Shown here one piece after another: positions 4,973 through 42,843 of a DNA stretch of 64,000 bases; within the stretch, counting starts at the first letter, position 1; the number at the start of each line of letters is the position of its first letter. The notes under the pieces were generated by a model that worked only from the letters and a program-made list of their open reading frames with translations, made no database searches and had not been told where the DNA came from. This DNA comes from an uncultured bacterium (GTDB taxonomy: Bacteria; Spirochaetota; B62-G9; DRHN01). Made by a program: the position numbers and the translations under genes. Where the stretch lies: positions 847 through 64,846 of the forward strand of contig CBFDDP010000002.1 in assembly GCA_965603595.1 (NCBI GenBank). Reading direction: 5' to 3'.

Positions 4973-6337
4973 ATGGAAAGAACAAAGTATGTTCTGGACG
5001 AAAAGGATTTACCAACGAAGTGGTACAACATTCAGGCGGACCTTCCTGAGCCCCTGCCCCCGCCACTCCATCCGGGAACAGGACAGCCCCTCGGACCGGA
5101 GGATCTGGCTCCCCTGTTTCCCATGGAGCTCATTAAGCAGGAGGTGAGTCAGGAGCGATTCATCGAGATTCCCGAGGAGGTGCTCGATATCTACAAGCTG
5201 TGGCGCCCCACGACTCTGTTCAGGGCCCGCAGGCTCGAGAAGGCCCTCGATACCCCGGCCAAGATCTACTACAAGTACGAGGGGACAAGCCCTCCCGGCA
5301 GCCACAAGCCCAATACCTCTGTACCGCAGGTCTACTACAGCATGAAGGAGGGGATCAAGCGGATTTCCACAGAAACAGGTGCAGGTCAGTGGGGAAGCTC
5401 TCTTGCCTTTGCTGGCGCATGTTTCAATGTTGATATCAAGGTGTATATGGTACGTATTTCCTACAATCAAAAGCCCTATCGCCGGGTCATGATGCAGACA
5501 TGGGGTGCGGAGTGCGTTCCGTCGCCTTCACCGGACACGAATGCCGGAAGGAGCATGCTCGAGCGTGATCCTGACTGCCCCGGAAGCCTCGGGCTTGCCA
5601 TTTCAGAGGCTGTAGAGGATGCCGTGTCCCGCGAAGATACCCATTATTCTCTCGGGAGCGTTCTCAACCATGTGCTGCTGCATCAGACCGTTGTCGGTCT
5701 CGAGGCAAAGGCCGTGCTCGAGGATATCGGCGACTATCCCGACATTCTGGTCGGCTGTGTGGGAGGAGGTTCGAATTTTGCGGGGCTATTCCTGCCCTTC
5801 CTGAAGGACAAGATCGATGGCAAGAAGCCGGACCTGCGTGTCGTCAACGTGGAACCTGCGAGCTGCCCCACTCTGACAAGAGGGCCCTACGCCTACGATT
5901 TCGGTGATGAGGCAGGACTCACACCCCTGTTGAAGATGTTTACCTTGGGGCACGGTTTTATCCCACCGCCCGTGCATGCGGGGGGTTTGCGCTATCACGG
6001 CATGGCGCCCATCGTCTGCCATCTGCTGAACATCGGACTGGTCGAGGCAGTGGCCATACATCAGCTCGAAACCTTCGAGGCAGGCATCACCTTTGCGAAG
6101 AACGAGGGGATCATCGCAGCGCCTGAAACCGACCACGCGATCAGGACAACTATCATAGAAGCTCTGAAGTGCAAGGAGACGGGAGAAAAGAAGACCATAC
6201 TCTTCAACTGCAGCGGCCACGGTCACTTCGACATGAGTGCCTATGAAGCATACCTGGCAGGCAAGCTGCATGATTACGAGTACCCACAGGAAAAAATCGA
6301 GCAGGCACTCAAGGACCTTCCGAAGGTCCCTTCCTGA
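4973..6337 (+). CDS. trpB: TrpB2-type tryptophan synthase beta-like PLP enzyme (stand-alone indole-scavenging type).
   Basis: The [28 protein letters not shown]-terminus is typical of the TrpB2 family. PLP-enzyme motifs ([14 protein letters not shown]) are present. The ATG at 4973 sits behind a perfect AAGGAGA RBS. The listed longer ORF from 4892 has no RBS. Confidence 0.85.
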
Positions 6338-6364
6338 TCAGGGAATAGTTGAGACTCACCATCA

Positions 6365-6403
6365 GGGCAGGGGGGGAGCACTCTTTCCTGCCCGATTATT
6401 TTT
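6365..6403 (+). terminator. Rho-independent terminator after trpB2.
   Basis: GGGCAGG (6365-6371), 15-nt loop, CCTGCCC (6387-6393), then GATTATTTTT. Confidence 0.55.
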
Positions 6404-6511
6404 CAGCTCCTCCATCCCCTGGAACTGAAGCCGGGATATTGACAAATAATCCATTTTGTGTATCGTTTAGAGTGATACGGGAGCATATCAGCAACCGTGA
6501 GGGTGTACTTC

Positions 6512-7762
6512 ATGGACAGAAATGATGAGAAGCGGGACATGAGCCTGGAGGAGCTTGACCTTCTCAACCAAATCGGTAGGGAGTTCTCCTCAACGCTCGA
6601 TCTCGAAAACGTGATAGGCCGTGTGATGAGCAGGGTAAAGGAGGTGCTCTGCTGTGAGGCGAGCTCGGTCATCCTGTACGATGAGGTGAAGGATTCGCTT
6701 GTCTTCTATGCAGCATCGGGGGCAGGGGCACATGATATCATGGGACTCGCTATCCCCCGGGGAAAGGGCATTGCAGGCTGGGTATACAGCCAGGGGACGC
6801 CTCTTGTCGTGGATGATGTGGCCCATGACGAGCGATTCTATTCTGGTATCGATCGGATAACCGGTGTGGAGACGAAATCCCTTGTCTGTGTTCCGATCAT
6901 GAAGAAAAGCCACATGCTCGGTGTACTGGAGGGAATCAACAAACAGGGAAGCCCCTTCGACCAGAAGGATGTGGCTATGCTCACAGCTATATCTCAGCTC
7001 GCTGCAATATCAATCGAAAACTCCAGGATACACAGCAACCTCGAAGAGAGCAACCGTGAGCTCCGCCTGCTGAACCGTGAAATGGAGGAGTTTGTACACA
7101 TGGTCTCCCACGACCTGCAAACTCCGCTCGCCTCAATCGAGGGGTACACCGGCCTCATACGGTCTGAAATGGGAGAGCAGTTGAGTAAAGGGAACACACT
7201 GCGGGGGTATCTGCAGAGAATCGAGGAAAACAGCAGGGATATGCTCCAGTTCGTACGGCGGCTGCTCGAATACGGCAGGCTGCAGCACAGTAAGATAGTT
7301 ATTGATGAGTTTAATCCGCTCGGTATACTGCATGAGGTGCTCACACTTCTCAGTGGAGAAATCGAGGAGAGAAATGCAAAGGTGCTTCACCCGAAACGCA
7401 TGCCCGTCATACGCTATGACCGTCATCTTTTTCATCATATCCTGCTCAACCTCATTCAGAACAGTCTCAAATATGCACACGACACACTTCCCAGACTGAT
7501 CATCGAAATAGGCGTGCACAGGGAGGAGTATGCCTATCACTTCTTTGTGCGGGACAACGGCCCCGGACTTTCCGATGAGGAGCAGCGGAAGGTTTTCAAT
7601 TTATACGAACGGGGTGAAGGAAGGGAGGTCTCCGGCGGCCACGGAATCGGTCTTGCATTCGTGAAGAAGGCAGTACAGCTTCTGAACGGCACTGTGTGGA
7701 TCGAGAGCAGGCAGGGCGGGGGAACCACCTTCTACTTCTCCGTGCAGCGTCCACGGCTGTAG
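6512..7762 (+). CDS. GAF-domain sensor histidine kinase (GAF, HisKA, HATPase_c).
   Basis: GAF-like N-terminal half. H-box MVSHDLQTPL. C-terminal N/G1/G2 boxes (NLIQNSLKYA, DNGPGL, GHGIGL). The ATG at 6512 is in frame with an alternative GTG at 6497. Confidence 0.8.
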   Translation: MDRNDEKRDMSLEELDLLNQIGREFSSTLDLENVIGRVMSRVKEVLCCEASSVILYDEVKDSLVFYAASGAGAHDIMGLAIPRGKGIAGWVYSQGTPLVVDDVAHDERFYSGIDRITGVETKSLVCVPIMKKSHMLGVLEGINKQGSPFDQKDVAMLTAISQLAAISIENSRIHSNLEESNRELRLLNREMEEFVHMVSHDLQTPLASIEGYTGLIRSEMGEQLSKGNTLRGYLQRIEENSRDMLQFVRRLLEYGRLQHSKIVIDEFNPLGILHEVLTLLSGEIEERNAKVLHPKRMPVIRYDRHLFHHILLNLIQNSLKYAHDTLPRLIIEIGVHREEYAYHFFVRDNGPGLSDEEQRKVFNLYERGEGREVSGGHGIGLAFVKKAVQLLNGTVWIESRQGGGTTFYFSVQRPRL

Positions 7763-11828: not shown

Positions 11829-12020
11829 GACACCTAAGCATACTATGAGTATTCTTACCTGACAACAGGAAACACTGTTCCGGCCACCCTGCTGCTGTGG
11901 AAAAGTTCTTGCAACTTGAGGCGGTTACATAAATAATAAAGTGACTGTCGCTCTGGTACTTTCGTAACTTTCTGGCAAATCGCGCTATATTAGTATCATA
12001 CATGGAATGCGGGGGCATAT

Positions 12021-13004
12021 ATGCCGGGTAAAGCTGAACTGCTCAAACAGGTACCTATTTTTTCCGAGCTTTCACAGAGAGCGCTGGATACAGTGGCCCG
12101 TTACAGCAGGTATTACAAATATGGCACGGGTGAAGTCATTTTCGATGATAACAGCCGGGGGGAGGAACTCTTTGTCATCAAGAACGGCGAGGTGCTCATC
12201 ACCAAGCATCATGCTGAGGGAGACAGGGACATCGCGCGTTTCATAGCCGGTGAAACCTTCGGTGACCTCGAACTGTTCGATGAAGCTTCCAGGTCCACAG
12301 TGGCGACTGCACTAACAGAAACAGTGCTTCTCCAGTTTCCAGGCAAGGACTTTCTGCTCGAAGACCTGCTTCGGAGGCACGCGAAAATATTCGCTCCCGT
12401 GCTTCACAGCCTGCTCGTTGTTATTGCCCGGCGTATCCGTGATACGAACAAGCTCATCTCTGAGAATGCACCCTGGGTACAGGACCTGCGGAGACAGCTG
12501 CACACCGATAAGCTGACAGGCCTGTACAACCGCACCTACCTCGAGGAGGATTTCTCCGAACTTCTATCCGGATATGGAGAAGGAACAGCACTCATCATGG
12601 TAAAGCCGGACAGATTCAAACATATCAACGATCGATTCGGACATGAAACGGGAGACCGAGTATTGCGGGTCATGGCGCAGACACTGCTCGATGCGGCAGG
12701 CAGTGAAGGGTTGGCTGCACGGTACAGGGGAGATGAATTTGCGGTCATTCTGCCGGCTGCAGGGATTGAACGGTCCCGGAATCTGGCACGGGACATCGGA
12801 AAGGCGATGGGTTCAATCGACATGGGGAAACTGGTGGGAGAAGCGTACGAACCCATAACCGTAAGTACAGGGGTTGCCCTCTATTCCCGTGATGGCAAAA
12901 CGAATATGGAACTGATACAGAGTGCCTTTGAACTGATGTTCATGGCGCAGGAAGCCGGCGGTAATTGTGTTCTCCATGCCGGCGACGCGGTGGAGGTACG
13001 CTAG
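12021..13004 (+). CDS. Cyclic-nucleotide-binding (CAP-like) domain fused to a GGDEF domain with a non-canonical RGDEF active-site motif.
   Basis: The N-terminal cNMP-binding fold (FSELSQRALDTV...GEVIF...GETFGDLELF) is followed by the GGDEF-domain hallmarks LTGLYNR, DRFKHINDRFGHETGD and ARYRGDEFAVILP. There is no RxxD I-site before the motif. Confidence 0.8.
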   Translation: MPGKAELLKQVPIFSELSQRALDTVARYSRYYKYGTGEVIFDDNSRGEELFVIKNGEVLITKHHAEGDRDIARFIAGETFGDLELFDEASRSTVATALTETVLLQFPGKDFLLEDLLRRHAKIFAPVLHSLLVVIARRIRDTNKLISENAPWVQDLRRQLHTDKLTGLYNRTYLEEDFSELLSGYGEGTALIMVKPDRFKHINDRFGHETGDRVLRVMAQTLLDAAGSEGLAARYRGDEFAVILPAAGIERSRNLARDIGKAMGSIDMGKLVGEAYEPITVSTGVALYSRDGKTNMELIQSAFELMFMAQEAGGNCVLHAGDAVEVR

Positions 13005-13985
13005 ATGGCGCGAGAAGCTGTTGAATTCCTGAAACAGGTTGAGCTCTTCTCCCTTCTCGGCGATGAAGAGATTGAATCTATAATAGAGTTTCTTCGTACA
13101 ATCCATGTCGATGAGGCCGGAACGCTGTTCAGGCAGGGGGATGAGGGCCATGAGCTCTACATCGTCCGTTCCGGGAAGATACGGGTTGCAATCACACTGC
13201 ATGACGGCCGGGAAAAGGACATCACCGAGTTTTTGCCTGGAGATTTTTTTGGAGAAATGTCCATTTTCGAGAATGCTCCCCGCTCTGCCACCTGTTACGC
13301 CAGTGAGCAGAGCAGCCTCTACGCGCTCATGGGTAGGGATTTCTACAGACTCATAAAGGATTCGCCGTCGCTTGCCATAAAGATCATGTACAGGATGTCA
13401 AATATTACGACACGCCGTTTACGCAGCACCGGTGAGTTCCTCTCCGACATGGTGGTGTGGGGGAAAAGGGCCCGCAAACGTGCAATAACCGATGAGCTGA
13501 CCGGCGTATACAACCGCCACTTCCTCGATGATGCTCTGGAGAATCAGATACACCGAGCAAGGGAAGGTGGAAGCCCGCTCTCTGTCGTTATGGTCGACCT
13601 GGACCACTTCAGGTCGATCAACGATGCCTATGGTCATGAAGTGGGCGACGAGATTCTCCTCTCAGCGGTCGAGATTTTTAAGAGGCATCTCAGAGAGAGG
13701 GATATCCTGGCCCGCTACGGCGGTGATGAGTTCACCATTCTCCTGCCGCACACGGGAATCGAGAAAGCGAGAAGCCTAGCGCAGATGGTCTGTGATGAGA
13801 TGGAGCAGGTCGAGACGCTGCAGCATCGTGGCGGCACACTGACCCGGGTAACCACTTCGCAGGGCATAGCAGCTTTCCCAACCCACGCGAATAACCTGCC
13901 CGCTCTGATGAAAAAGGCAGATGAGGCACTGTACAGGGCGAAGGAGCTTGGCAGAAACAGAGTTGTCTGTGCCGCAGACAGCTAG
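13005..13985 (+). CDS. Cyclic-nucleotide-binding domain fused to a canonical GGDEF diguanylate cyclase with an RxxD I-site.
   Basis: The cNMP-binding N-terminus is followed by LTGVYNR, DHFRSINDAYGHEVGD and RERDILARYGGDEFTILLP (I-site RERD five residues upstream of GGDEF). The start ATG immediately follows the TAG of the upstream paralogue. Confidence 0.85.
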   Translation: MAREAVEFLKQVELFSLLGDEEIESIIEFLRTIHVDEAGTLFRQGDEGHELYIVRSGKIRVAITLHDGREKDITEFLPGDFFGEMSIFENAPRSATCYASEQSSLYALMGRDFYRLIKDSPSLAIKIMYRMSNITTRRLRSTGEFLSDMVVWGKRARKRAITDELTGVYNRHFLDDALENQIHRAREGGSPLSVVMVDLDHFRSINDAYGHEVGDEILLSAVEIFKRHLRERDILARYGGDEFTILLPHTGIEKARSLAQMVCDEMEQVETLQHRGGTLTRVTTSQGIAAFPTHANNLPALMKKADEALYRAKELGRNRVVCAADS

Positions 13986-14041
13986 GTCGGGCAGTCCTGG
14001 TATTGCGCATGTGAGTGCTTTCATCGATGGAGGGACCATAC

Positions 14042-15202
14042 ATGAAGAAAGTTCCTATCACCACTATTTATGAAAAGAACAGGGTTATCGAAAATATCAT
14101 TGACGCCATGCTTACGAGGAATAAATTCCTGCTTCTGGGTCACCGCAATCCCGATGAAGACTGCATTGCCTCTATGGTTGCCTTCTCACTCCTTCTTGGA
14201 AAAATGTACAAGGATGCCGAGATCTGTCTCGGTGAGAAGGTGCACGAACACTTTCAGTATCTTTTTAATATCTGCCGATACAATTCAATCACCCTCGTCG
14301 ATGCATGCGAGAGCTTTGAAGACAGCATTGACACAATAGTCATATGCGATACGCCGAAACCTTCCATGATTGAGCGCAACCGCATGATTGAGAAGCTCTT
14401 TGAAGACCCGGCGGTACTAAAGATCGAAATCGATCACCATATCGGTGCCGACTCGACCTATATTGGTGATCAGGGCTACTGTCTGGTTACCGATGCCACC
14501 TCCTCGAGCGAGCTCGTTGGACATCTCGCTCTTAAAATGAGGAACCGACGGGGACTTGTTGATCAATTCCAGATCAACGAGGTCCTTTCCCGCAATGTCA
14601 TACTTGCCATACTCACCGGAATTATCGGTGATACCAACATGGGTCAGTTTCTTAAATCACGGCGGGAGAAGAAGTTATACCACATTTTCAGTTCTATGCT
14701 CAACAACCTCCTCGCTGAGGAGACGGTCAAAGAATCAAACTTCAAGAACATGGACGAAATCTTTAAGGAATTGCACCGACTCTCGACAAAGGAAGACCAC
14801 AGTTATCGATACTTTATGGACCGGAAGCAGTTTTCCCAGTCCATCGGCTGGGTCGCACTCGACGAGGGCGATACGGAAAAACTCTTTCGCAATGTAGACG
14901 AGCAAACGGTGGTAAATGTTGTACGGGCGGTTGCAAATGAACTTGCTGAGGAAAGCGGCAGACTGAGTCTCGTTTCCTATTACGATAAACCCGGGCTTTC
15001 AGACCTTATACAGTTCCGCATGCGGAGGAGCCAGGCATACAAGAAGTACGATTTGCGGGAGATGCTCACGCTCTTCTCCATAGAGAACGGAGGCGGCCAT
15101 GAGGGGGCTATCGGATTCCGCCTCCCCCGTTCTGAAATCGATGATTACAATCTGTATGTGCAGGGCCTCATTGGAGGGCTTGAGAAGGTGCTCCCCGCAT
15201 AA
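14042..15202 (+). CDS. DHH/DHHA1-family phosphoesterase (NrnA-like nanoRNase / pAp phosphatase type).
   Basis: Motifs HRNPDEDC, ICDT and EIDHHIG, with a C-terminal DHHA1-like GGGH (ENGGGHEGA). The ATG at 14042 is preceded by GGAGGGA. The ORF extends to 14015. Confidence 0.7.
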   Translation: MKKVPITTIYEKNRVIENIIDAMLTRNKFLLLGHRNPDEDCIASMVAFSLLLGKMYKDAEICLGEKVHEHFQYLFNICRYNSITLVDACESFEDSIDTIVICDTPKPSMIERNRMIEKLFEDPAVLKIEIDHHIGADSTYIGDQGYCLVTDATSSSELVGHLALKMRNRRGLVDQFQINEVLSRNVILAILTGIIGDTNMGQFLKSRREKKLYHIFSSMLNNLLAEETVKESNFKNMDEIFKELHRLSTKEDHSYRYFMDRKQFSQSIGWVALDEGDTEKLFRNVDEQTVVNVVRAVANELAEESGRLSLVSYYDKPGLSDLIQFRMRRSQAYKKYDLREMLTLFSIENGGGHEGAIGFRLPRSEIDDYNLYVQGLIGGLEKVLPA

Positions 15203-15289: not shown

Positions 15290-16416
<1,127 letters not shown>

Positions 16417-16420
<4 letters not shown>

Positions 16421-16821
16421 AACAATCGGTACTGTTTATCTGCACCCACAATTCCGCCCGTTCACAGATGGCGGAGGGGCTCTTGAATCACTTCCGCGGT
16501 GACAGTTTCAGGGGATACAGCGCCGGTATCGAGGCGACCCGCGTGCATCCCTATGCAGTGCGCGCACTTGCCGATATCGGTATCGATACAAGCGGGCATC
16601 GTTCTAAAACGGTTGAAGAGTTTCAGGGAGAAACCTTCGATACAGTTGTAACCGTGTGTGACAATGCGCGTGAGTCCTGTCCCTTTTTCCCGGGAAGAAG
16701 GGTGATTCACCGGAGCTTTCGCGACCCGTCGTGCACGGAAGGAAGTGATGCTGAAATACTACAGGACTTCAGAGAGGTGCGGGACGAGATACGGGCCTGG
16801 ATCGATGAGGAGTTTATATGA
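16417..16821 (+). CDS. arsC: Arsenate reductase of the LMW-PTP, thioredoxin-coupled type.
   Basis: The [14 protein letters not shown]-loop (CX5R) with downstream Cys residues. 134 aa. Confidence 0.85.
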
Positions 16822-17570
16822 GCTCCTCCATCTTGTGTTTCACTGCCGCATAGACGCCCTTTCCCCTATTCTCCATGATTGTTCGCACAAAAGCTGAGCC
16901 CACGATTGAGGCGTGCACATGGGGTGCAAGAAGATCTATCTGCTCTCGATGAGAAATCCCGAAACCTGCAAGAATCCTGATCTCCCTCTTACCGGTGGCA
17001 GTGCTGATCCTTCGTAAAAACCCGATGTTGTCGTCTCCTATCTCTGTGACCTTTCCCGTTATACCCTTTCTGAGCGCAGCGTACAGGAAGCGTGGCTCAG
17101 AATGGAGTATGGATTCCAGCCGCTGCGGCCCTATGGTGGGAGCAACCACAGGTACGGCACTCATACCATACTTCTCTGACAGGCGGAACAGGTCTTCATC
17201 ATAGTCAAAGGGCAGGTCAGGAACGATGAGCCCCTGTACCCCCTGCTGCGCGCAGCTATCGATAAAGGCTTCAACACCGCTGTGGAACAGGGTGTTCCCG
17301 TAGCACATGATGAAGATGGGGGTGTCGGATATCGCACGAATACTGCTTACAAGCTCGAACCCGCGCCTGACCTTGAATCCATTTTCAAGGGCTTGTGTAC
17401 AGGCAGTCTGAATGGCAGGCCCGTCTGCTGTTGGGTCGCTGAAGGGGAACTGTATCTCCAGATAGGTACTCCCTCCGTCTATCATGGCAGCGGCGACTTC
17501 CATTGAACTGGCCCCATCGGGATAATAGGCCACCATATGAGTCATCAGCCTATGCTTCATCTTCTCTTCC
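16814..17570 (-). CDS. trpA: Tryptophan synthase alpha chain.
   Basis: MKHRLMTHMVAYYPDG...YLEIQFPFSDPTADGP...GFGIS is the TrpA pattern. The start ATG was mapped at 17570-17568. The listed 419-aa ORF is an upstream in-frame extension overlapping trpB. Confidence 0.9.
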
Positions 17571-18827
17571 TTCCTGCAGGAGAAAATCTCTCCAGCCTTT
17601 TCCGGCAAGCTGCTTTGCCAGTATGAAGAGGTCCTTGTCTCCGCGTCCGGACATGTGGACAATAATCGCCCGGTTTTCGGGCAGTTCAGGTGCCATTTCC
17701 AGTGCCGCTGCTCCCGCATGTGCTGATTCGAGGGCGAATATGAGGCCTTCATGGGAGGCAAAGAACCGAACCGCTGCAAGCGATTCATCGTCGCTCGCAC
17801 TGGTGAATTCGATACGGCCATCCTGCCCCAATCTGGCGAGCTGTGGACCGATTCCTGGATAATCGAGACCGGCCGATATGGAGTGTGTTTTCCCGACCTG
17901 CCCGTCATCGTCGAGCAGGAACAGAGATTTGTAGCCGTGTACAATACCGGGTCTGCCGAAGCCCCCCATCCTCGCAGCGTGTTCTCCCGGGCCTGAGCCT
18001 CTGCCGCCAGCCTCAACCCCGACGAGGCGCGGTTTCTCACGGCCAAGAAAAGGCGCGAAGAACCCGATTGCATTGGACCCTCCGCCCACGCAGGCGATGA
18101 GCGCCTCGACTTCCAGGCCCAGTCTTACCATCTCCTCCTCAACCTCTCTGCCAATGACTGACTGGAACTCCCGGACCATATCGGGGTAGGGTGAGGGCCC
18201 CAGGGCTGAACCGATGAGGTAGTGGGTGGATGTGAAGCTTCCCGCCCAGTCCCTGAGAGCCTCGTTGATAGCATCCTTGAGCGTTTTGGAGCCCGAAACA
18301 ACGGGAACGACCTCGGCCCCGAAAAGCTCCATCCAGAAAACGTTGGGCCGCTGCCGCCACATGTCTATTTCACCCATGTACACACGGCACTTCAGGCCGA
18401 GCTTTGCGCAGGCAGCCGCGGTCGCCACACCATGCTGGCCGGCTCCTGTTTCAGCAATGATTCTTTCCTTACCCATGCGCTTGGCGAGCAGCGCCTGGCC
18501 CAGCGCATTGTTGATCTTGTGGGCTCCCGTGTTTGCAAGGCCTTCGAGCTTGATATAGATTTGGGCGCCACCGCAGCTGTGGGTTGCGTTCTGTGCAAAG
18601 AGAAGAGGTGTCGGTCGTCCCGCATAGGAGACCAGAAGGTCCTGTAGTTCTGAGCAGTATGCATCGCTATCCATGCTCTCTCGCCAGGCTATCTCGAGTT
18701 CATCGAGGGGTGTCCTCAGTATCTCGGCAACGTAACGACCGCCGAAATCACCGAAATAGTCGTTGTATATCCCTTTCACCTGCTTCTCCTCATTACGATG
18801 GGGTTCATGTATCTGTATCCATGCCAT
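17550..18827 (-). CDS. trpB: Tryptophan synthase beta chain (TrpB1 type).
   Basis: NDYFGDFGGRYV, the PLP Lys in GAHKINNALGQ, and GGGSNAIG. Start MAWIQ mapped to the ATG at 18827. The listed 557-aa ORF is an artefactual extension. Confidence 0.9.
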   Translation of the reverse strand: MAWIQIHEPHRNEEKQVKGIYNDYFGDFGGRYVAEILRTPLDELEIAWRESMDSDAYCSELQDLLVSYAGRPTPLLFAQNATHSCGGAQIYIKLEGLANTGAHKINNALGQALLAKRMGKERIIAETGAGQHGVATAAACAKLGLKCRVYMGEIDMWRQRPNVFWMELFGAEVVPVVSGSKTLKDAINEALRDWAGSFTSTHYLIGSALGPSPYPDMVREFQSVIGREVEEEMVRLGLEVEALIACVGGGSNAIGFFAPFLGREKPRLVGVEAGGRGSGPGEHAARMGGFGRPGIVHGYKSLFLLDDDGQVGKTHSISAGLDYPGIGPQLARLGQDGRIEFTSASDDESLAAVRFFASHEGLIFALESAHAGAAALEMAPELPENRAIIVHMSGRGDKDLFILAKQLAGKGWRDFLLQEGREDEA

Positions 18828-20274
18828 AAGAACCGGTGATCTTGCATATGCCTTCGATTTCCTTGAAGAATTGTACCATGATGCTAGAGTCCTTGGTCCC
18901 GGGTTCGGATTCAAGCCTGCTCGAGGCGTCGATGAGTTCCGGCTCAAAGGAGCTGATAATCTCTGCAACGTTATCGGGTCCGATGCCCCCTGCCAGCCAA
19001 AGAGGGTGCAGCCTGCGGACAGACTCGATGAGTTTTGTCGATATCCTCTGCCCTGTGCCCCCGGGTTTTCCGGGAACGAAGGCATCGACCAGGACCCGGG
19101 GGCAGTGGAAGGAGTCGATACGCTCCACATCCTCATCTCCCCCGATCCGCAGGGCCTTGTAATAGGGAAAGGCCGCCCTGTAGCAGTTGTCCGGGTGCTC
19201 ATCACCATGAAACTGCAGGGCATCTATGCATCCTTCCGACAGAAGCCTGTTCACGGCGCTATCGATCGACCGGTCCTCTTCCCCATGCACCACGACTGCC
19301 ACCTTGAGCTGTTTGAGGTCGGTGATTCTTTCGGGAAGTCCGGGATCCGCACATCTGGGTGAATCGGCAAATATGAAACCAAGTACATGGGCACCCAGTT
19401 CCGCGGCGAGCCGGGCATCCCGTTCCCTGGTGATTCCGCATATCTTCACCAGCGGCTTTCCTTCAGCCATGGAGGAGAAGAGGCGGTACCAGAAATCTCC
19501 AATGCCTTCCCGCTCGAGGGCGGTTATCCGTCCGATGAGGTCTGTATCCCTCATCGCACCTTCGCCGATGAGCATTCCTGTAAAACCGCCGGACAGGGCA
19601 ACTGCCGCATCCTCGGTGGAGCGTATACCTGATTCAAAAACCGTACGGGTACTCCAGTCTATGGATTTTTTAAGGGCAAGAGGGACTGCCGGATCAATAC
19701 GAAAGGTCGCTAAGTTCCTGCTGTTTATTCCCGTTATATCAGGCTGCACCAAAGCTGCCTTACTGAGGTCCTCGCGGTCGTGTACTTCAAGGAGAACCTC
19801 GAGACCGAGGCTCTTTGCCCTGCGATACAGTCTGCCCAGTGTGCCTGCGTCATGCATGGAGGCAATGAGGAGTATTGCATCTGCCCCTGCCCTGTAGGAA
19901 ACCGTGATATCATCCTCATCGAGAATGAAATCCTTCCGCATGACGCAGAGGTCAGGGAAGGAGTTCTTGATCCTGAACAGGTCCTCCAGTGAACCGTGAA
20001 AATATGTCTCCTCGGTGAGGACTGAGAGGGTTTTAATTCCCCTCTTGGCGTAGTGTCCGGCCTGGCGGACTGCATCAGCTTCCACTGCAAAGATCCCGCG
20101 AGACGGTGAGCCCCGCTTGACTTCACTGGCAATGAAAAAATCCCTGCCCGGCTGCAGTCTTCCGAAGGGAACAAGGGGTACGGTTCTGCGTCGAGGAAGG
20201 CTGCGCCCCATACTGGGGCCCAGGCGAGCGATACTCCTCTTTCTCGCCTCGACGATTTCATCGATGATACTCAT
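18805..20274 (-). CDS. trpC: Bifunctional indole-3-glycerol-phosphate synthase / phosphoribosylanthranilate isomerase (fused TrpC-TrpF).
   Basis: An N-terminal IGPS pattern followed by a PRAI domain starting near [11 protein letters not shown]. 489 aa. Overlaps trpB by 23 nt. Confidence 0.85.
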
Positions 20275-35984: not shown

Positions 35985-38381
35985 ATGAAGATCAACACTA
36001 AGAAAAAAATCAACCTCAGTGCAGAAAGCAAGAACCTGATCAAGGTGCGTGACTTTGTGGTGAAGTATGGCCGCAAGATGGGCCTTCTCCCAAAGCAGGT
36101 GAGTGAAGTGAAGCTTGCGGTCGACGAGGCGGTGTCGAACATCATCCGCCATGCCTACGGTGGTGGGAGGGGTAATTTCCAGGTCGAGATGACAAAATTC
36201 GAAAGTGCCGTGGAATTGAAGATCATTGATCAGGGAGTTGAGTTTGACTGGTATTCAGTCCTGGAACCCGACCTTTACAAGTATGTGGAGACGAGGCGAA
36301 AGGGTGGCCTGGGGATCTGGCTCATAAAGAAACTCATCGATGAGGTGGAGTATAAGAGGCTCGAGAACAACAATATCCTTACCATGAAGATATACATCGA
36401 TGAGGTGGTCGCCAAAGAGTTCGCCCGTGAGGTCCGGGGGCGGTTCAGCATCAGGATACGCTATGCGGTCTACGCGCTTGGTATGGTTGGTATCATAGTA
36501 TTAACGGCCTTTATTATTGGAAGCAGGGTGCAGAGCACCATTATTGAGAAAAGGTTGAATGAACGCTACGAATCGGTAACCAGACAGGTTTCGGAAACTG
36601 CGTCCGACCTCATTCTCGACGGCGATGATCTTGCCCTTGCAAACCTGGCAGTCTCGGTCCGCCAGAATGACAACACCCTTGGGTATGTCATTGTCACGGA
36701 TACGGATAATCTGATACTTGCCCACACCGATGTGAAGCGAATATACACAACCTACAATAAGCCCTCCGGGATTTTGGATAATGCAGTGTTCGAACTGAGG
36801 GAAGTCGAGTACAGAAGTGCAGGGAGTACGGCCAGATTCAAGCACTTTGCTGCACGTGTGGTATATGTAAACACTGCAGAGGGACAGTCGAGAAATCTCG
36901 GGGAAGTGCACATCGGAATCGACCAGAATGTGTTCCTCCAGAGAATCGACGCTGCAAAGGAAAACACAAGGGTGGCCCTCATAGCCGTGTTCTTTGGAGG
37001 TACGACCATCATCGGGGTCATCCTTATCGGCTCCACCTTCATCTCTCCAATCACCAAGCTTGCCGATGAAATCTCCCGTATCAGTGCCACCGGGCAGGCC
37101 CGTGAGCTGAGCTTCGCAACGAGGAACCCGGAGGTAGGCAGGATTGGTCAGGCTTTCAACGAGATCATGCGCAATCTGCGCATGACGCAGGGTCAGCTTA
37201 CCGACCAGACACGTCTGCGGCGCGAACTGCAGCTCGCTCAGGAGATACAGAATGCCCTTCTGCCCAAGCAGGTGCCGACCCTGGATGGGTTTGACATAGA
37301 TGCTGCCTACCGGGCCGCTCTGGAGGTGGGTGGTGACTACTACGATTTCTTCGAGGTGGACAAAAATTCCATCGGCATCGTGGTTGCCGACGTTTCTGGT
37401 AAGGGAATCGGAAGTTCGATGGTCATGACCATGATCAGGACTTCCATGCGTCTGGAGGCACGCGGGAACAAACGTGCGTCCTTTGTGCTCGACAAGGTGA
37501 ACCGTATCGCAGTGGAGGATATCAAAAAGGGCATGTACGTCACCATGTACTATGTAATCCTCGATGCCAAGAAGCGCATCGTGAATTACGCAAGTGCCGG
37601 GCACAACCCCATGATTATTTACCGGAGTGATACGAAAACGGTGAGCTTCCTCAATCCCGTGGGTATAGCTGTGGGCATCGACCTGGGGAACACCGACGAG
37701 TTCAAGAAGCGTATCACCAGTGAGAAGCTGAAGCTGAAAAAGGGGGATCTGTTATTTATCTATACGGACGGCATCACCGAGGCGATGGACGAGAAACGCG
37801 AACAGTTTGGGGAGAATCGGCTCATTGACTTCATACAGCAATACGCGCATCTGCCCGCAAGTGAGTTCAAGGCGAAGCTGAACGAGGAGCTCACCGCCTT
37901 TACCAAGGGCTATCCGCAGAGCGATGATATCACCTTCGTTGTCATCAAGCTCGAGATGAGCCCGGCCGAGATCAGGCAGGCCAAGATACTCCGTCTCTTT
38001 GAGCTGCTCGAGGAGGAAGTTCCCCTTGACGATGTCCTCGAGCAGACTGGTATCTCCCATGAGGAGTATCAGGAACTCAATGAGAAACGGGAGCAGCTCG
38101 GTGACGAGGCGATCAAGGTTGTGGCGGAGGAGGAAAAGGAGGAGGCAGAGCTGGGCCATGCGTCGCACGAACAGGTCAAGCTGCTTACCCAGATCATACG
38201 GCAGAATCCCGAGTACGGGGTGACGCGGTTGACAAACCTCCTGAACAGCGAGGAGTACGGGTCACAGGGCGTGAAGGAGAGTGTGGTCAAGAGGGAGCTC
38301 GTGCGTATGAAGCTCGATAGTCGGGAGAAGCGCGAGGCCTTTTCCAAGCGTGAGCTTCCCACCTGGGCTTCCTACAAGTAG
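35985..38381 (+). CDS. Fusion protein: RsbW/SpoIIAB-like anti-sigma Ser kinase domain (HATPase_c_2), TM, sensor, TM, HAMP, PP2C/SpoIIE Ser phosphatase, and a C-terminal acidic helical extension.
   Basis: N-terminus AVDEAVSNIIRHAY...GGLGIWLIKKLIDEVEY (kinase). Two TM helices flanking a ~150-aa segment. HAMP (TKLADEISRISATGQ...). PP2C motifs DVSGKGIGSSMVMT and YTDGITEAMDE. 798 aa. Confidence 0.8.
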   Translation: MKINTKKKINLSAESKNLIKVRDFVVKYGRKMGLLPKQVSEVKLAVDEAVSNIIRHAYGGGRGNFQVEMTKFESAVELKIIDQGVEFDWYSVLEPDLYKYVETRRKGGLGIWLIKKLIDEVEYKRLENNNILTMKIYIDEVVAKEFAREVRGRFSIRIRYAVYALGMVGIIVLTAFIIGSRVQSTIIEKRLNERYESVTRQVSETASDLILDGDDLALANLAVSVRQNDNTLGYVIVTDTDNLILAHTDVKRIYTTYNKPSGILDNAVFELREVEYRSAGSTARFKHFAARVVYVNTAEGQSRNLGEVHIGIDQNVFLQRIDAAKENTRVALIAVFFGGTTIIGVILIGSTFISPITKLADEISRISATGQARELSFATRNPEVGRIGQAFNEIMRNLRMTQGQLTDQTRLRRELQLAQEIQNALLPKQVPTLDGFDIDAAYRAALEVGGDYYDFFEVDKNSIGIVVADVSGKGIGSSMVMTMIRTSMRLEARGNKRASFVLDKVNRIAVEDIKKGMYVTMYYVILDAKKRIVNYASAGHNPMIIYRSDTKTVSFLNPVGIAVGIDLGNTDEFKKRITSEKLKLKKGDLLFIYTDGITEAMDEKREQFGENRLIDFIQQYAHLPASEFKAKLNEELTAFTKGYPQSDDITFVVIKLEMSPAEIRQAKILRLFELLEEEVPLDDVLEQTGISHEEYQELNEKREQLGDEAIKVVAEEEKEEAELGHASHEQVKLLTQIIRQNPEYGVTRLTNLLNSEEYGSQGVKESVVKRELVRMKLDSREKREAFSKRELPTWASYK

Positions 38382-38640
38382 GGATAATGCGTTGTATGTG
38401 AACTTTTCAGTTGCTTTTCAATTTCGGTTTGGAGTACAATTATTCTATGTATAGTAAATAATGACGCATCATGAAGCCTTTTTCATTTTTTTATCTGAGA
38501 ATAAGGGTTATGTTGATGGGTGCCTTGTTACGCGATGCTGCGAAAATACAGGGCTGCCTATAAATTCACTATGTTCAAGTGGCGATATATACTATATTGA
38601 GTCGAAGCGATAGAGCTTCCGAGGTACTGAGGAGGAGTGG

Positions 38641-39351
38641 ATGCCAGATATTCAGGTTGATGTCAGATACGACGGTGACAGCGATGAGATAGCCATTATC
38701 GATGCGAAGGGTTTCATCGACACCACCACTGCTCCCGAGCTCGAGAAGAAGCTCGAAGAGCAGTTGGCACTTAATAAATACAGGATAGTCGTGAATCTTG
38801 AAAATATCGACTACGTGAGCAGTGCAGGATGGGGTGTTTTCGTTTCTGAGATCCGGGAAATTCGGGAGAACAGCGGTGACCTCGTTCTTGTGAACATGTC
38901 TCCCGATGTGTATGATGTCTATGAGCTCATGGAGTTTTCATCCATACTGAAGTCCTACGACAGTGTGGAAGAGGCTATTGCAGGTTTCACAGGTAAGGAG
39001 TTCAAGAAGGAGGAGCCGAAACTTGCACCTGGGCCAGCTCTCCCACCGAGGCCTGAGCCTGTACAACCCCAAGTGCAACCAGAGCAGCAGGCGCCTGCCC
39101 AGACCGCACAGCCACAGGCTACATCGGGTACCGATGTCTATTCCTATGCTCAGAGTGAACTCGGCAAACGTATCATACATATCATCGTCGATAATCCCTA
39201 CTACAAAGTGAAGGAGATCGCAAAGGCACTAAGGCTCCCCAACTACGGTGGTATGAAGGTGGGCGGTGGTGCCGTTAAAAAAGAATTGAAGAGCATGGGA
39301 TTGTCAGACAAACAGCAGCGTTTTGAGCTCGCTTTGAAGGGACGCGGCTAA
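38641..39351 (+). CDS. STAS-domain anti-sigma-factor antagonist (SpoIIAA/RsbV-like) with a Pro/Gln-rich linker and an extra ~60-aa C-terminal domain (possible helix-turn-helix).
   Basis: STAS fold with the phosphorylatable Ser motif IDYVSSAGWG. Linker PGPALPPRPEPVQPQVQPEQQAPAQTAQPQ. C-terminus RIIHIIVDNPYYKVKEIAKALRLP. Confidence 0.8.
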   Translation: MPDIQVDVRYDGDSDEIAIIDAKGFIDTTTAPELEKKLEEQLALNKYRIVVNLENIDYVSSAGWGVFVSEIREIRENSGDLVLVNMSPDVYDVYELMEFSSILKSYDSVEEAIAGFTGKEFKKEEPKLAPGPALPPRPEPVQPQVQPEQQAPAQTAQPQATSGTDVYSYAQSELGKRIIHIIVDNPYYKVKEIAKALRLPNYGGMKVGGGAVKKELKSMGLSDKQQRFELALKGRG

Positions 39352-39415
39352 TCCAGGCCTATTTAGCCACCCTATCCACAGTGCAACAAAAACTTCAGAA
39401 TAGCGGGTGAGAAGC

Positions 39416-41647
39416 ATGGAAACCAAGGTGGCCGATTACCTGATAACAGTTGAAAAGGTAACCAGGGAACTCTCACAGATAGAGTCCATAAAACAGCTGC
39501 CACAGTATATTGCAAGTCAGCTTTCATCCGCATTGAATGATAACGTTCAATATGCCTTCGTTGACAGGGAATCAAACAATATCTATGAATCCTCCCACAT
39601 TGACAGCAATGTCAAGAATTTACTGCCCTTTTTCCTGGACGACAGGTTTACGGACGAGTTGAAGAAGCTCGACTGGAGCGTGGTTGACTCGAGGGGGGTG
39701 CGTTTTCTTTTCAAGGAGGTTTTTGGCCACGAATCAGACCTGGAGGCATCCTTTCTCATCCTGCCAAAGAAACGGGGTGACCTGATCGTCTACTTCTCTG
39801 TGCTCTGGGGGAGCAATAAACTCGAGAAGATCGACAAGGAGGAGGTCGATTTCATTTCCTCTGTGTGCAGTGCTGCTGAACTGAAGATTGTGAGCCTGCT
39901 TGGCGTTGCCAATCAGGCAGGAGACAGGGATTTAAGGCGCAAGGCCTTTGAGCTGAAAGAAATTTCCGGTATGGGCGTCGATCTAACCTCACTTGGCAAG
40001 GAGGATTTTTTTGGCAGTTTTCTCCTGAACGTCATGGGGAGAGCGCTCAGTAAGACGGCTGTTATCTTCCTTTCGACCAATGAAAACAACACTGAGTATG
40101 CACCTGTCGCGTCCAGAGGTGTGCTCAAGAAATTTGTGGAGAATATCCATTTCACAGATAAAAACTCATTCATTCAGGAGCTGAGAAAGCGGCAGGAAGC
40201 AATGGCTATACCGGATATGCTTGACATACTGGACGATGAGGAGAAAGACAGCTTCATCAAACTCGAGGCTGCTGTTCTCGTCCCCCTCATCTCTAAGAAT
40301 GGATTGATCGGCCTGCTCACACTCGGCGAACGTATGAATATGCAGCCCTACTCTGAAAAGGTCTATGACTCTATTAAGATCTATAGTAACCAGATGGTGA
40401 TGGCGATCGAAAACTCCAAACTTTCCAACCTTCGCTATGCCTTTTCGCGTTATGTTTCCCATCAGCTCGTCGACGGCATTCTTTCCGATCTGGATAAGGT
40501 TAAGCTAGGAGGAGAGCGGCGGAAGGTCACCGTTCTCTTTGCAGATATTCGAGGGTTCACCTCGATGGCCGAGAAGATGAAGCCTGAGGAGGTTGTAGAC
40601 CTGCTCAACACCTATCTATCGGGACTGACCGATATCGTATTCAAGTTCGAGGGAACCCTCGACAAGTATATTGGCGACTGCCTTATGGCTGTGTTCGGCA
40701 CACCCATCTCTCACTACAATGATGCGGAGCGGGCGACCATAACCGCCATAGAGATGCAGAAATATGTGGAGGAGATCAACGCCAAGAGGGAAAAGAAAGG
40801 CCTCCCCGAGGTGGCGATAGGTGTCGGGCTCAACACCGGTCATGCCATATCAGGAAATATGGGCTCGGTAGACCGGATGGACCTTACGGTCATCGGTGAT
40901 GTAGTCAATATTGCCTCAAGGCTTGAAGGGATTGCCGGTCGCGGCCAGATACTGGCCACCCGTGAAGTGTATGAAGAGGTGAAGTATGTTGTAGACGCCG
41001 AGTTTCTGGACAGTGTGACGGTGAAGGGTAGAGCACAGGCCGTTGACGTGTATGAGATCAAGGGTCTTATGGCAGGGAGGTTCCTGAGTGTGCTCGAACG
41101 GGTGGAACCCTACAAGGTTGGCCACTATCTCAATATTGCCGGGGATGCAGAGCTCATAGGCCAGAAGCTTGGATTTCCCATGGAAGAACTCATCAAACTC
41201 CGTTCCGCAATCCTGCTTATCGATATCGGCAGAATCGGACTGAGTGAGGGTATATTCAATAAGAAAGATAAGTTAACCCCCGAAGAGTTTGAAGTGGTGA
41301 AGAGTCATGTCATTCGGGGTGCTGAGTATGTTGAAAAGAAGCTGAATCTCTTCAAGGAGGGTATTGAACTCGTGAAGTATCATCACGAGTTTTACGACGG
41401 CAGTGGGTATCCCGACGGTCTCAAGGGTGAGGATATCCCACTCTGGGCACGGATCGTTTCAGTAGTCGATTCTTACTATGCCATGATCTCCAGCCGGCCA
41501 TTTAGAGAGCCCCTCAAAGAGGAGCAGGCCATAGCCATTCTCAATGATGAGAAGGGCAAGAAATACGATCCGAAAATAGTTGACGTCTATACTGGAATCC
41601 TTAGAAAACGGCTGCACGAAAACGTCGAAGCGGGTACCCCTGCATGA
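39416..41647 (+). CDS. GAF-like N-terminal region, class III adenylate/guanylate cyclase catalytic domain, and HD-GYP phosphodiesterase domain.
   Basis: Cyclase motifs VTVLFADIRGFT, KYIGDCLMAVFG and VGLNTGHAISGNMGS. HD-GYP motifs (H..HHEFYDGSGYPDGL). The ATG at 39416 is in frame with a GTG at 39407. Confidence 0.85.
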   Translation: METKVADYLITVEKVTRELSQIESIKQLPQYIASQLSSALNDNVQYAFVDRESNNIYESSHIDSNVKNLLPFFLDDRFTDELKKLDWSVVDSRGVRFLFKEVFGHESDLEASFLILPKKRGDLIVYFSVLWGSNKLEKIDKEEVDFISSVCSAAELKIVSLLGVANQAGDRDLRRKAFELKEISGMGVDLTSLGKEDFFGSFLLNVMGRALSKTAVIFLSTNENNTEYAPVASRGVLKKFVENIHFTDKNSFIQELRKRQEAMAIPDMLDILDDEEKDSFIKLEAAVLVPLISKNGLIGLLTLGERMNMQPYSEKVYDSIKIYSNQMVMAIENSKLSNLRYAFSRYVSHQLVDGILSDLDKVKLGGERRKVTVLFADIRGFTSMAEKMKPEEVVDLLNTYLSGLTDIVFKFEGTLDKYIGDCLMAVFGTPISHYNDAERATITAIEMQKYVEEINAKREKKGLPEVAIGVGLNTGHAISGNMGSVDRMDLTVIGDVVNIASRLEGIAGRGQILATREVYEEVKYVVDAEFLDSVTVKGRAQAVDVYEIKGLMAGRFLSVLERVEPYKVGHYLNIAGDAELIGQKLGFPMEELIKLRSAILLIDIGRIGLSEGIFNKKDKLTPEEFEVVKSHVIRGAEYVEKKLNLFKEGIELVKYHHEFYDGSGYPDGLKGEDIPLWARIVSVVDSYYAMISSRPFREPLKEEQAIAILNDEKGKKYDPKIVDVYTGILRKRLHENVEAGTPA

Positions 41648-42843
41648 GTGAAATCTCCAAAAAGCTGGTCGTTTCTAGCGATCTGGAGAAGAACCTCATC
41701 TTTCAGAGTCTCCTCAGGATGAAGGAGCCGATCGAACTGGAGCTTGGCGGATTTCGTTATCCGGGTTTCGTGAAACGCTATGATAGGAAGAGCATTCTCC
41801 TCGACATGCAGACCCCTCTGAAAATGGATGTTGGGGGGCCTGTTCGCGCCCATTTTATCTTCCACAACAGTTACCATTATTTTGACACCGCCGCGCAGAA
41901 GAAGGATGATAGCCATATTCAGCTTCTGCTCCCCGAGAAGATCAACAGGAATATGCTCCGCGCCAATGACCGTATTGATGGGCTGAACCGTGTGTTCATG
42001 CGATTCAAGATCCTGATTCATTCAAAGCGAAAAGAACTCTTGAGCTCCTCTCTCCTAGATGAACGAGTAATCATGCAGGAGGTGAGTAAGCCAAAGCCCG
42101 CCGTGGACAAGATACTTGCCGGGATCAAGCGGCTCGTCTCCGATTTTGCCCAGAACTTTCAGGTCAAAATATTCAAAGAGGATGAAAAACTTTCCTTTGA
42201 TGAGAGTATTCTCAAGCAGTCCGGGAAGATCTTTCTTATCTATGACTCTTTTGAGGACAACATCGAGGGCAGAAGGCATTTTGAGCAGGAGGTCATTGGC
42301 ATCAGTGATGCATATGCGCTCCTGATTCATGCAGGAGAATCGAGAAAGAACGCTGAAAGTAAACTGCTAGATCTGCTTCAGCAGAAGAGAAACGGCAATG
42401 TCTTTTCTGAGAGTCTCATACCGCTCATGCTGGAAGGCGAGGTTGTGGGATATATCCGCCTGTTCAACGACATGGATTATCATCGAAGCATAAAACCCGC
42501 ATTCGCTCTTCGCGCGGCAAAGTATGCCACTGTTCTCGTGGAAGCTCTTGTGAAGTATGATTACTTCACTCTCGAAAGCGGGGAGGAATTCGATGTACCT
42601 GTTATCAATGTGAGTGCGGGAGGACTCCTGTTCAAGCTCGACAGGTCTGCGGTAAAACAGTATCTTATTCTCCGCACCACGCTCATGATGACGATTCAAT
42701 TTACCACACATCTGGTTGAGGCGAGCGGTGTTATACACCGCATCGATAAGGAACGGTCCGAATTCGGCGTTAAATTTTTTATGATAAACGAGGTTGACAG
42801 CCAGTTTATCGATGATGTGGTGCATGGCAAGGTAAAGGTGTAG
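41644..42843 (+). CDS. PilZ-domain protein (YcgR-like N-terminal domain plus a C-terminal PilZ with a DxSxGG-like motif).
   Basis: The C-terminus VINVSAGGLLFKL matches the (D/N)xSxGG c-di-GMP-binding motif. An upstream RxxxR is not obvious. The ATGA overlaps the stop of the cyclase/HD-GYP gene. Confidence 0.6.
   Translation: MSEISKKLVVSSDLEKNLIFQSLLRMKEPIELELGGFRYPGFVKRYDRKSILLDMQTPLKMDVGGPVRAHFIFHNSYHYFDTAAQKKDDSHIQLLLPEKINRNMLRANDRIDGLNRVFMRFKILIHSKRKELLSSSLLDERVIMQEVSKPKPAVDKILAGIKRLVSDFAQNFQVKIFKEDEKLSFDESILKQSGKIFLIYDSFEDNIEGRRHFEQEVIGISDAYALLIHAGESRKNAESKLLDLLQQKRNGNVFSESLIPLMLEGEVVGYIRLFNDMDYHRSIKPAFALRAAKYATVLVEALVKYDYFTLESGEEFDVPVINVSAGGLLFKLDRSAVKQYLILRTTLMMTIQFTTHLVEASGVIHRIDKERSEFGVKFFMINEVDSQFIDDVVHGKVKV

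Follow-up and report, generated by a model that had tools for sequence, protein, structure and literature searches.

We analyzed a 64,000-nucleotide stretch of DNA (hereafter, the window) from an uncultured bacterium of the Spirochaetota (contig CBFDDP010000002.1 of assembly GCA_965603595.1, positions 847 to 64,846 of the forward strand), in which three co-directional genes on the + strand, the open reading frames ORF1 to ORF3, appear to form an operon-like module of a kind that recurs in this phylum. On balance, we lean towards a reading in which ORF1, a predicted pseudo-cyclase, and ORF2, a predicted diguanylate cyclase, would assemble into a heteromer gated by a cyclic nucleoside monophosphate (cNMP), with ORF3 as a DHH-type hydrolase of guanine dinucleotides. 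ORF1 (12021..13004, 327 aa), which we call A-type, carries a cNMP-binding domain, a helical linker and a degenerate GGDEF domain; ORF2 (13005..13985, 326 aa), the B-type, carries a cNMP-binding domain and a canonical GGDEF domain; and ORF3 (14042..15202, 386 aa), the D-type, encodes a predicted DHH/DHHA1 phosphoesterase. The first two are paralogues, with 30% identity over their full length (E = 2e-52). The stop codon of ORF1 abuts the start of ORF2 in the sequence TAGATG (13002..13007), and a GGAGG lies 8-12 nt 5' of the ORF2 ATG. For ORF3, a start at GTG 14015 was rejected in favor of ATG 14042, which has GGAGGG 8 nt upstream and gives the same length, 386 aa, as in the orthologues; it is most likely the true start. 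A first-pass annotation of this DNA had described the abutting stop and start codons, CAP-type cNMP-binding and GGDEF domains in both proteins, an RYRGDEF signature without an inhibitory site (I-site) in the first, and a complete GGDEF with an RERD I-site in the second. All of this was borne out, and all of these domains score above their Pfam gathering scores.

The degenerate domain of ORF1 was compared with PleD, using residue roles (D327, E370, N335, D344, K442 and R446) taken from a published account (PMC12943098) and an alignment numbered by the structure 2wb4. In Pfam, ORF1 scored 57.3 bits for cNMP_binding (residues 33-112; gathering score 27.5) and 115.6 bits for GGDEF, PF00990 (residues 161-315; gathering score 23.8). 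The alignment showed that K195-P196-D197 (12603..12611) occupies the metal-binding site D327-I328-D329, so that K195 stands at the Mg2+-binding Asp and P196 at I328. R236 stands at G368, the first Gly of the signature, which thereby reads RGDEF (RYRGDEF, 12720-12740), and in the stretch AQEAGGN (12945..12965) the triphosphate binders K442 and R446 are replaced by Q310 and G314. At the I-site, GSEG (residues 227-230, 12699-12710) takes the place of R359..D362, with D258 at R390, and RxxD is thus absent. The residues kept are N203 and D212 (N335 and D344 of PleD, which bind guanine), K200, H208, R234 and D238/E239 (E370/E371). ORF1 therefore has neither the GG(D/E)EF signature nor the D327 counterpart of an active cyclase, although the GGDEF fold is present: the AlphaFold2 model (pLDDT 89.9) has a cNMP-binding (CNB) barrel, a long helix at residues 121-148 and an intact GGDEF fold, and its best structural matches are the sensor-helix-GGDEF cyclases PadC, DgcB, DgcR, SiaD and GCN4-WspR, together with CRP-family proteins. 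Judged by these residues, ORF1 lacks four of those needed to hold GTP-Mg, a combination of changes at odds with the standard mechanism. It has previously been reported that the AGDEF protein VCA0965 retains activity, so that a substitution of the first Gly can be tolerated (PMC3974145). We argue for inactivity because D327K and R446G combine with RGDEF, and not because of RGDEF alone. The residue scoring thus supports the catalytic impairment that had been suspected from the signature, and the lesions (D327->K, G368->R, K442->Q and R446->G) exceed those that the first-pass annotation had noticed.

That annotation had also overlooked that RGDEF is the hallmark of an old conserved family, and no local mutation. 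Searching by homology with ORF1, we obtained orthologues at 42-99% identity, and every source name given was a metagenome-assembled genome (MAG) of the Spirochaetes/Spirochaetota. In an alignment of 112 homology-selected sequences, KPD and the counterparts of N203 and D212 were present in 112/112, that of G314 in 111/112 and that of R236 in 105/112. We also assembled 177 distinct A-family sequences by adding metagenome members to the homology-selected ones; the added members were retrieved by the pattern KPD...ND..GH, so that invariance at these positions is circular there, while the 112 homology-selected sequences are unaffected. In the larger set (PleD numbering), position 368 is Arg in 142 sequences, Met in 12, Lys in 8, Gln in 7, Leu in 3 and Gly in 2; position 370 is Asp in 135 and Asn in 41; position 442 is Arg in 153 and position 446 Gly in 175; N335 is kept in all 177 and D344 in 176. 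The hallmark pattern of the family can be written as KPD...RGDEF...GGN. When 1.84 billion representatives were searched exhaustively with a profile, the best 150 matches included at least 110 clusters (50% identity) with KPD, which ranked ahead of the B-type proteins. In the same loci, the A family diverges faster than its partners (43-51% identity vs 53-57% and 54-67%), yet the pocket residues K332, N335, D336, H340, D344 and R366 are invariant in it and more conserved than in the live family, as would be expected of a pseudoenzyme that has retained guanine-nucleotide binding. At the RxxD position, R359 or D362 is kept in about 57-66% of the A family, and ORF1 and its whole clade have GxxG there and D258 at the R390 position. 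One A-type gene (L111, 6988-7986, - strand) combines KPD with an intact GGDEF signature and may be an intermediate or reverted state. As for what the guanine pocket of the dead subunit might bind, the PDB entries 9g85/9g86 (released in 2025), which show PleD with cyclic di-GMP (c-di-GMP) and (p)ppGpp, make (p)ppGpp a candidate ligand. One relative (L081) has a RelA/SpoT gene 5 kb downstream of the module, perhaps by coincidence.

ORF2 scored 83.2 bits for cNMP_binding, 166.2 bits for GGDEF (PF00990) and 175.8 bits against TIGR00254 (cut-off 37.4), and its sequence matches in the PDB, PleD and WspR among them, had E-values of 2e-35 to 1e-25. Its catalytic residues are all canonical (D198, N206, D215, G239-G-D-E-F243, K313 and R317). 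In the stretch RERD-ILARY-GGDEF (13692..13733), the I-site motif RERD (residues 230-233, 13692-13703) precedes RYGGDEF (13713-13733), and the secondary R390 position is Met. The 120 homology-selected sequences of the ORF2 family (52-100% identity) are all Spirochaetota by name. D327, N335, D344, GGDEF and K442 are kept in 120/120 of them and R446 in 116, and RxxD is mostly kept (Arg in 95, Asp in 108); SGDEF is present in three B-type sequences. With every catalytic and RxxD position canonical in ORF2, and the same catalytic residues kept in 116-120 of the 120 orthologues, ORF2 would by sequence qualify as an active diguanylate cyclase of the PleD/WspR type.

The phosphate-binding Glu and Arg of the cNMP-binding domains, whose absence the first-pass annotation had named as a point that would tell against it, are both in place in ORF2, where the cassette FGEMSIFENAPRSATC (13248..13295) has the canonical pair E84 and R93 (FGE84...PR93SA). 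The pair is kept in 110/120 orthologues, and the cassette FFGEMSIFENAPRSATC is nearly invariant in the ORF2 family. The cassette of ORF1, FGDLELFDEASRST (12258..12299), reads FGD...SRST, so that the Arg is kept (Arg91) and the Glu is replaced by Asp82. Across the A family (n=177), this Glu is found in 165 sequences and Asp in 12, and the Arg in 131 and Met in 26. Ligand binding by ORF1 is thus less certain than by ORF2. The distance between the cassette and DxLTG, where the GGDEF domain starts, is constant within each family (83 and 81 residues), which fits rigid helical linkers.

The order of dead and live genes is conserved far beyond chance; it recurs both in the loci found by homology and in those found on metagenome contigs. 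The live gene directly follows the dead gene in all seven homology-found loci (L081, L083/84, L085, L086, L087, L088 and L001), the neighborhoods of which are quite different. A hallmark-specific DNA pattern identified at least 80 loci on metagenome contigs (74 clusters at 90% identity), which are a sample and not a census; among the matches listed, 54 of the 58 non-redundant loci that were informative show a canonical B-type gene as the immediate downstream neighbor on the same strand. Stop and start overlap or abut at 31 of 53 A/B junctions (ATGA in 18 cases), and a further 15 junctions have a gap of 1-20 nt. Moreover, the two proteins occur as a single chain of ~665 aa at L106, L114/L161 and L121 and in the representatives P0373-P0375 and P0425. 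The first-pass idea that an active and a degenerate cyclase might hetero-dimerize gains genomic support from these dead-live fusions and from stop/start overlap being the rule. Live-DHH single chains of ~720 aa, with a linker of ~8 residues, are found at L085, L088, L001 and seven metagenome loci and also in P0497, P0511 and P0518, and the GGDEF domain fused to DHH in these relatives is the canonical one. In 20 of the 36 loci where this could be assessed, the pair comes with DHH, either as a gene of its own or as part of a fusion. No conserved substitute was found in the remaining loci, where EAL and HD-GYP genes were looked for. We therefore regard the dead/live pair as the core unit and the DHH gene as a frequent third component, which the lineage of the window possesses.

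Several observations on these relatives stand apart from the counts. The dead-live fusions (L106, 4324-6333; L114, 3019-5025, equal to L161; L121, 2486-4489) have the order CNB-KPD/RGNEF-GGDEF followed by CNB-canonical GGDEF, and no DHH gene is nearby in any of them. At L086 (MAG GCA_043803405.1), the B-type partner (6103-7074) keeps GGDEF and has lost the guanine-binding stretch (FKQYSEMFTQSQVN for FRSINDAYGHEVGD); no DHH gene follows this pair, and both partners may be inactive. Apparently large B-type proteins of 650-1345 aa (L146, L165 and similar loci) were rejected as stop-free artefacts of high-GC DNA with no extra domains. A protein-guided scan of genome contigs with generic GGDEF peptide patterns gave L001 as the only true relative among the matches listed.

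It has been reported that pGpG, a linear guanine dinucleotide, is degraded by NrnA, NrnB and NrnC (PMC6256023), and that the DHH/DHHA1 hydrolase PggH is specific for pGpG (PMC8861645). ORF3 had been called an enzyme of the NrnA type. The fold and the motifs agree with this, and family membership does not: against the NCBIfam NrnA equivalog NF053633, ORF3 scored 29.1 bits, compared with a cut-off of 350. It passes the Pfam DHH model (43.2 bits), while DHHA1 remains below its threshold (16.7 vs 25.9 bits), and its sequence matches in the PDB reach only E ~1e-4. The AlphaFold2 model (pLDDT 85.4) nevertheless folds as DHH plus DHHA1. The best Foldseek matches (E = 4e-17 to 1e-13, with identities of just 14-19%) are TmPDE/TM1595 (in complexes with pApA or GMP), S. 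aureus Pde2/NrnA, Borrelia DhhP, Rv2837c and B. subtilis NrnA, and include the catalytic domain of GdpP (5xsp, 5xt3 and 5xsi, the c-di-GMP complex included). The residues of the active site are D38/D40 (DxD, 14153-14161), D103, D131-H-H133 (DHH, 14432-14440), D197 (in GDT, 14627-14635), R326/R328/R329 (RMRR, 15017-15028) and G350-G-G-H353 (GGGH, 15089-15100). Among 50 orthologues, DxD, D103, DHH, RxRR and GGGH are invariant, and the full motif set is invariant or nearly so. The orthologue family is tight (54-94% identity), and ORF3 has an extra helical insert of ~60 residues (~205-260) modelled with lower confidence. The Joint Genome Institute (JGI) annotates relatives of ORF3 as ‘nanoRNase/pAp phosphatase’. 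Taken together, the model and the motifs point to a predicted dinucleotide or cyclic-dinucleotide phosphodiesterase, which is not an NrnA orthologue and belongs to a separate conserved subfamily.

The mechanism that we favor would work as follows. ORF2 would be a functional diguanylate cyclase that senses cAMP or cGMP through its N-terminal CAP-type domain, by analogy with the Xanthomonas campestris protein XC_0249 (PMC3770947). ORF1 would be an ancient paralogue turned pseudo-cyclase, with fold and guanine recognition kept, the triphosphate clamp remodelled and no formation of a phosphodiester bond. Made together from coupled frames, the two proteins would form a heteromer held together by their CRP-like helical linkers. 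Within it, the dead subunit may set or gate the live one, and would supply an additional sensor as well as a GGDEF domain that binds a nucleotide but does not catalyse. ORF3, which is tethered to the live cyclase in many lineages, would then remove pGpG and/or c-di-GMP locally. We infer the complex, the identity of the ligand, the direction of regulation and the substrate of the DHH enzyme from the domains, residues, conservation, gene order and fusions described above.

A number of points weigh against this mechanism. The relatives are all metagenomic, and the evidence consists of sequence, predicted structure and gene context. The standard symmetric mechanism of c-di-GMP synthesis is closed to a GGDEF heterodimer in which one half-site is dead, so that the heteromer would have to be inhibitory, belong to a higher-order assembly or use a different chemistry. 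Given the activity of the AGDEF protein VCA0965 (PMC3974145), RGDEF by itself is no proof of inactivity. Asp takes the place of the cassette Glu in ORF1, and Met that of the Arg in 26 of the 177 A-family sequences, so that not every dead subunit can be expected to bind a cNMP. Missing from 16 of the 36 assessable loci, the DHH gene is an accessory rather than a core part. Finally, four KPD-type genes have no B-type neighbor despite enough flanking sequence (L107, L111, L118 and L125).

Alternatively, catalysis might be carried out by the A:B heterodimer as a unit. In such an obligatory asymmetric heterodimer, Lys and Arg would stand in for Mg2+ and R446, so that the dead half could bind a metal-free guanine nucleotide and offer the 3'-OH of this nucleotide to the GTP of the live half. 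A single bond would be made, giving a linear guanine dinucleotide (pppGpG/pGpG-like), or else c-di-GMP would arise by a sequential one-site mechanism; both cNMP domains would exert control, and the DHH protein would be the dedicated hydrolase. Six residues that are invariant in the dead family (the guanine-binding N335 and D344, and also K332, D336, H340 and R366) argue for a functional nucleotide pocket, but this conservation is equally explained by a regulatory site that senses GTP or another nucleotide. The change of K442 to Arg, common in the family, is conservative, the new basic residues K327 and R368 could bind phosphate without metal, and the dead-live fusions place one domain of each kind in one chain. 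The DHH partner, for its part, has RxRR, and its closest folds are hydrolases of linear dinucleotides, but it is missing in ~44% of assessable loci. To our knowledge, a dedicated linear-dinucleotide synthase built of GGDEF domains has no precedent. We consider asymmetric catalysis of this kind unlikely. We also considered the possibility that the DHH gene is a housekeeping nanoRNase/pAp phosphatase, an NrnA orthologue that stands beside the cyclases by accident. The label given by JGI to its relatives, the NrnA-like fold and motifs and the absence of the gene from 16/36 loci would agree with this. However, the gene is fused in frame to the live cyclase, across the short linker, in at least 10 independent loci or clusters, its score falls far short of the NrnA equivalog cut-off, and its low identity to any solved DHH/DHHA1 enzyme and its extra helical insert set it apart. 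The housekeeping role is therefore rather improbable.

PopA, PelD and SgmT are degenerate GGDEF proteins that act as c-di-GMP receptors through an I-site-like pocket, and ORF1 might in the same way detect what ORF2 makes, as a receptor or effector and not as a partner subunit. Receptors of this type are well known (discussed in PMC12943098), and part of the RxxD motif survives in more than half of the A family. On the other hand, GxxG at RxxD and D258 at R390 in the clade of ORF1 mean that an I-site is no family-wide requirement, ORF1 has no output domain, and the dead-live fusions and stop/start overlaps would be left unexplained; we regard this role as quite doubtful. A still smaller chance is given to ORF1 being an active cyclase with an unusual signature, the two genes then being redundant paralogues that differ in their sensory control. 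Activity can survive a change of the first Gly, as in VCA0965 (PMC3974145), SGDEF occurs in three B-type sequences, and E370/E371 are kept in ORF1 as Asp and Glu. Such an activity is nonetheless very hard to reconcile with a Lys at the metal-binding Asp in every member, Gly at R446 in 175/177, Asn at catalytic position 370 in 41/177 and the faster divergence of the A family in the same loci.

The components of the module are of kinds already known, namely a cNMP-GGDEF cyclase, a degenerate GGDEF domain and a DHH/DHHA1 hydrolase. Stand-alone DHH/DHHA1 hydrolases cleave pApA, pGpG or cyclic dinucleotides. Those represented by TmPDE (TM1595), Pde2/NrnA, DhhP, Rv2837c/CnpB and PggH share with ORF3 the two-domain fold and the motifs DxD, D, DHH, GDT, RxRR and GGGH. 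ORF3 differs from them in its identity of only 14-19%, its helical insert and its sub-threshold match to the DHHA1 model, and also in its linkage or fusion to a diguanylate cyclase, which is unreported for these enzymes in the literature that we searched (few subscription journals were covered). In Caulobacter, the GEDEF domain of PdeA (CC3396) binds GTP and activates the EAL domain. PdeA thus resembles ORF1 in having lost the signature, kept guanine recognition and plausibly regulated a neighboring catalytic domain; however, PdeA regulates an EAL domain in the same chain, whereas the partner of ORF1 would be a paralogous, active GGDEF protein, and the lesions of the ORF1 family (Lys for the metal-binding Asp, Arg for the first Gly and Gly for R446) are specific to that family. 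A conceptual parallel, and no more than that, is offered by the pseudo-heterodimers of class III cyclases (mammalian adenylyl cyclase C1/C2 and soluble guanylate cyclase alpha/beta), in which one copy of a duplicated catalytic domain remains active and the degenerate one is retained as an obligatory or regulatory partner, in separate proteins or in a single chain. Their fold and chemistry are unrelated, and each of their sites is built from both subunits, whereas a GGDEF half-site binds its own GTP.

The closest known counterpart of ORF2 is the cGMP-activated cNMP-GGDEF cyclase XC_0249, in which cGMP binding raises c-di-GMP synthesis (An et al. 2013; PMC3770947). The likeness is one of architecture only, both having a CAP-type cNMP domain and a competent GGDEF domain; in addition, the XC_0249 genome and the organism studied here both encode a class III cyclase, and XC_0249 adjoins its guanylate cyclase gene. 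XC_0249 is a single protein from a different phylum, has a cGMP-specific N145/E146 diad and comes without a degenerate paralogue or a DHH enzyme. GdpP/YybT, a c-di-AMP phosphodiesterase with the order TM-PAS-degenerate GGDEF-DHH/DHHA1 (TM, transmembrane), is like the module in joining GGDEF to DHH/DHHA1, and its catalytic domain is among the best structural matches of ORF3. In GdpP, however, the degenerate GGDEF is in the same chain and there is a membrane anchor, while in the module it is the canonical cNMP-GGDEF that adjoins or is fused to DHH, the degenerate GGDEF is separate, there is no PAS domain and the proteins are soluble. No segment of the module proteins is hydrophobic enough for a transmembrane helix (maximum Kyte-Doolittle value over 19 residues, 1.43), and the separate genes in the window do not have the GdpP/YybT arrangement. 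In the same literature, we found neither a family of pseudo-cyclases with KPD and a non-Gly signature nor any account of such proteins being almost always paired with, or fused to, an intact paralogue; ‘RGDEF’ appeared only in unrelated peptides, and GdpP was the only GGDEF-DHH fusion, with no fusion of a canonical GGDEF to DHH/DHHA1. We also considered anti-phage defense. PADLOC identified no Pycsar, CBASS or type III CRISPR system, giving only weak matches to CNB and palm domains (20-36 bits) and none to DHH. A defense-system reading was rejected because these matches are weak and at the domain level and because the neighboring genes are housekeeping genes.

The module is preceded by an intergenic region (11829..12020, no strand) between a divergent alanine racemase gene and ORF1, which presumably holds the promoter of the three-gene unit. 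Sigma-70-like matches at 11909-11937 and 11972-11999 were no more frequent than in shuffled sequence, and are thus at chance level; scans for Rfam families, tRNAs and terminators at the module gave nothing informative and no c-di-GMP riboswitch. Directly after the DHH gene (15290-16821, +) lie an ACR3-type SBF transporter gene and an ArsC-type low-molecular-weight phosphatase gene. In the 81%-identical relatives L083/L084, the transporter is absent and the LMWPc gene directly follows DHH, which points to a recent insertion or loss. At 16814-19223 (-), trpA and trpB are listed with 419 and 557 aa, compared with 240 and 406 aa in the close relative L083, and their N-terminal extensions are stop-free, non-coding read-through.

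Elsewhere in the window, a gene at 39407-41647 (+) encodes a GAF-class III cyclase-HD-GYP-like protein and is followed by a gene for a PilZ protein. The presence of a class III cyclase and a PilZ protein shows that the organism uses both types of messenger, and the region 39407-42843 (+) looks like a second node of cNMP/c-di-GMP crosstalk beside the module. In the former protein HHExxDGxGYP is present, and the HD dyad reads ‘LLIDIGR’ (His->Ile), so that HD-GYP may be degenerate; the PilZ protein (399 aa, C-terminal PilZ 24.1 bits vs a gathering score of 22.5, NVSAGG motif) has a start that overlaps the preceding stop by 4 nt. Just upstream (35985-39351, +) are genes for an HATPase_c_2-sCache-HAMP-SpoIIE (PP2C) protein of 798 aa and a STAS protein, a partner-switching-type pair. 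The window also encodes an 816-aa DinG-like helicase (47599-50049, +; DEAD, ResIII and Helicase_C_2) with a weak N-terminal RadC-like JAB match (30.5 bits), an unusual combination, and a TPR-repeat protein (59312-60715, -) with a C-terminal Mrr_cat restriction-endonuclease-like domain (35.9 bits).

Degenerate GGDEF domains occur widely and are usually handled singly, as receptors or relics; here, a whole family keeps the Lys state together with the guanine pocket. The A/B pair would therefore offer a clean natural test system for the control of a cyclase by a pseudo-cyclase, and all three proteins are small and soluble, so that they should express easily. The module would also be a second, independent example of direct coupling from cNMP to c-di-GMP after XC_0249. 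If the dead half does present the acceptor to the live half, the three proteins would constitute a self-contained second-messenger circuit specific to Spirochaetota. In addition, the fusions of canonical cyclases to DHH suggest that DHH enzymes may serve c-di-GMP turnover in Spirochaetota as GGDEF-EAL proteins do elsewhere.

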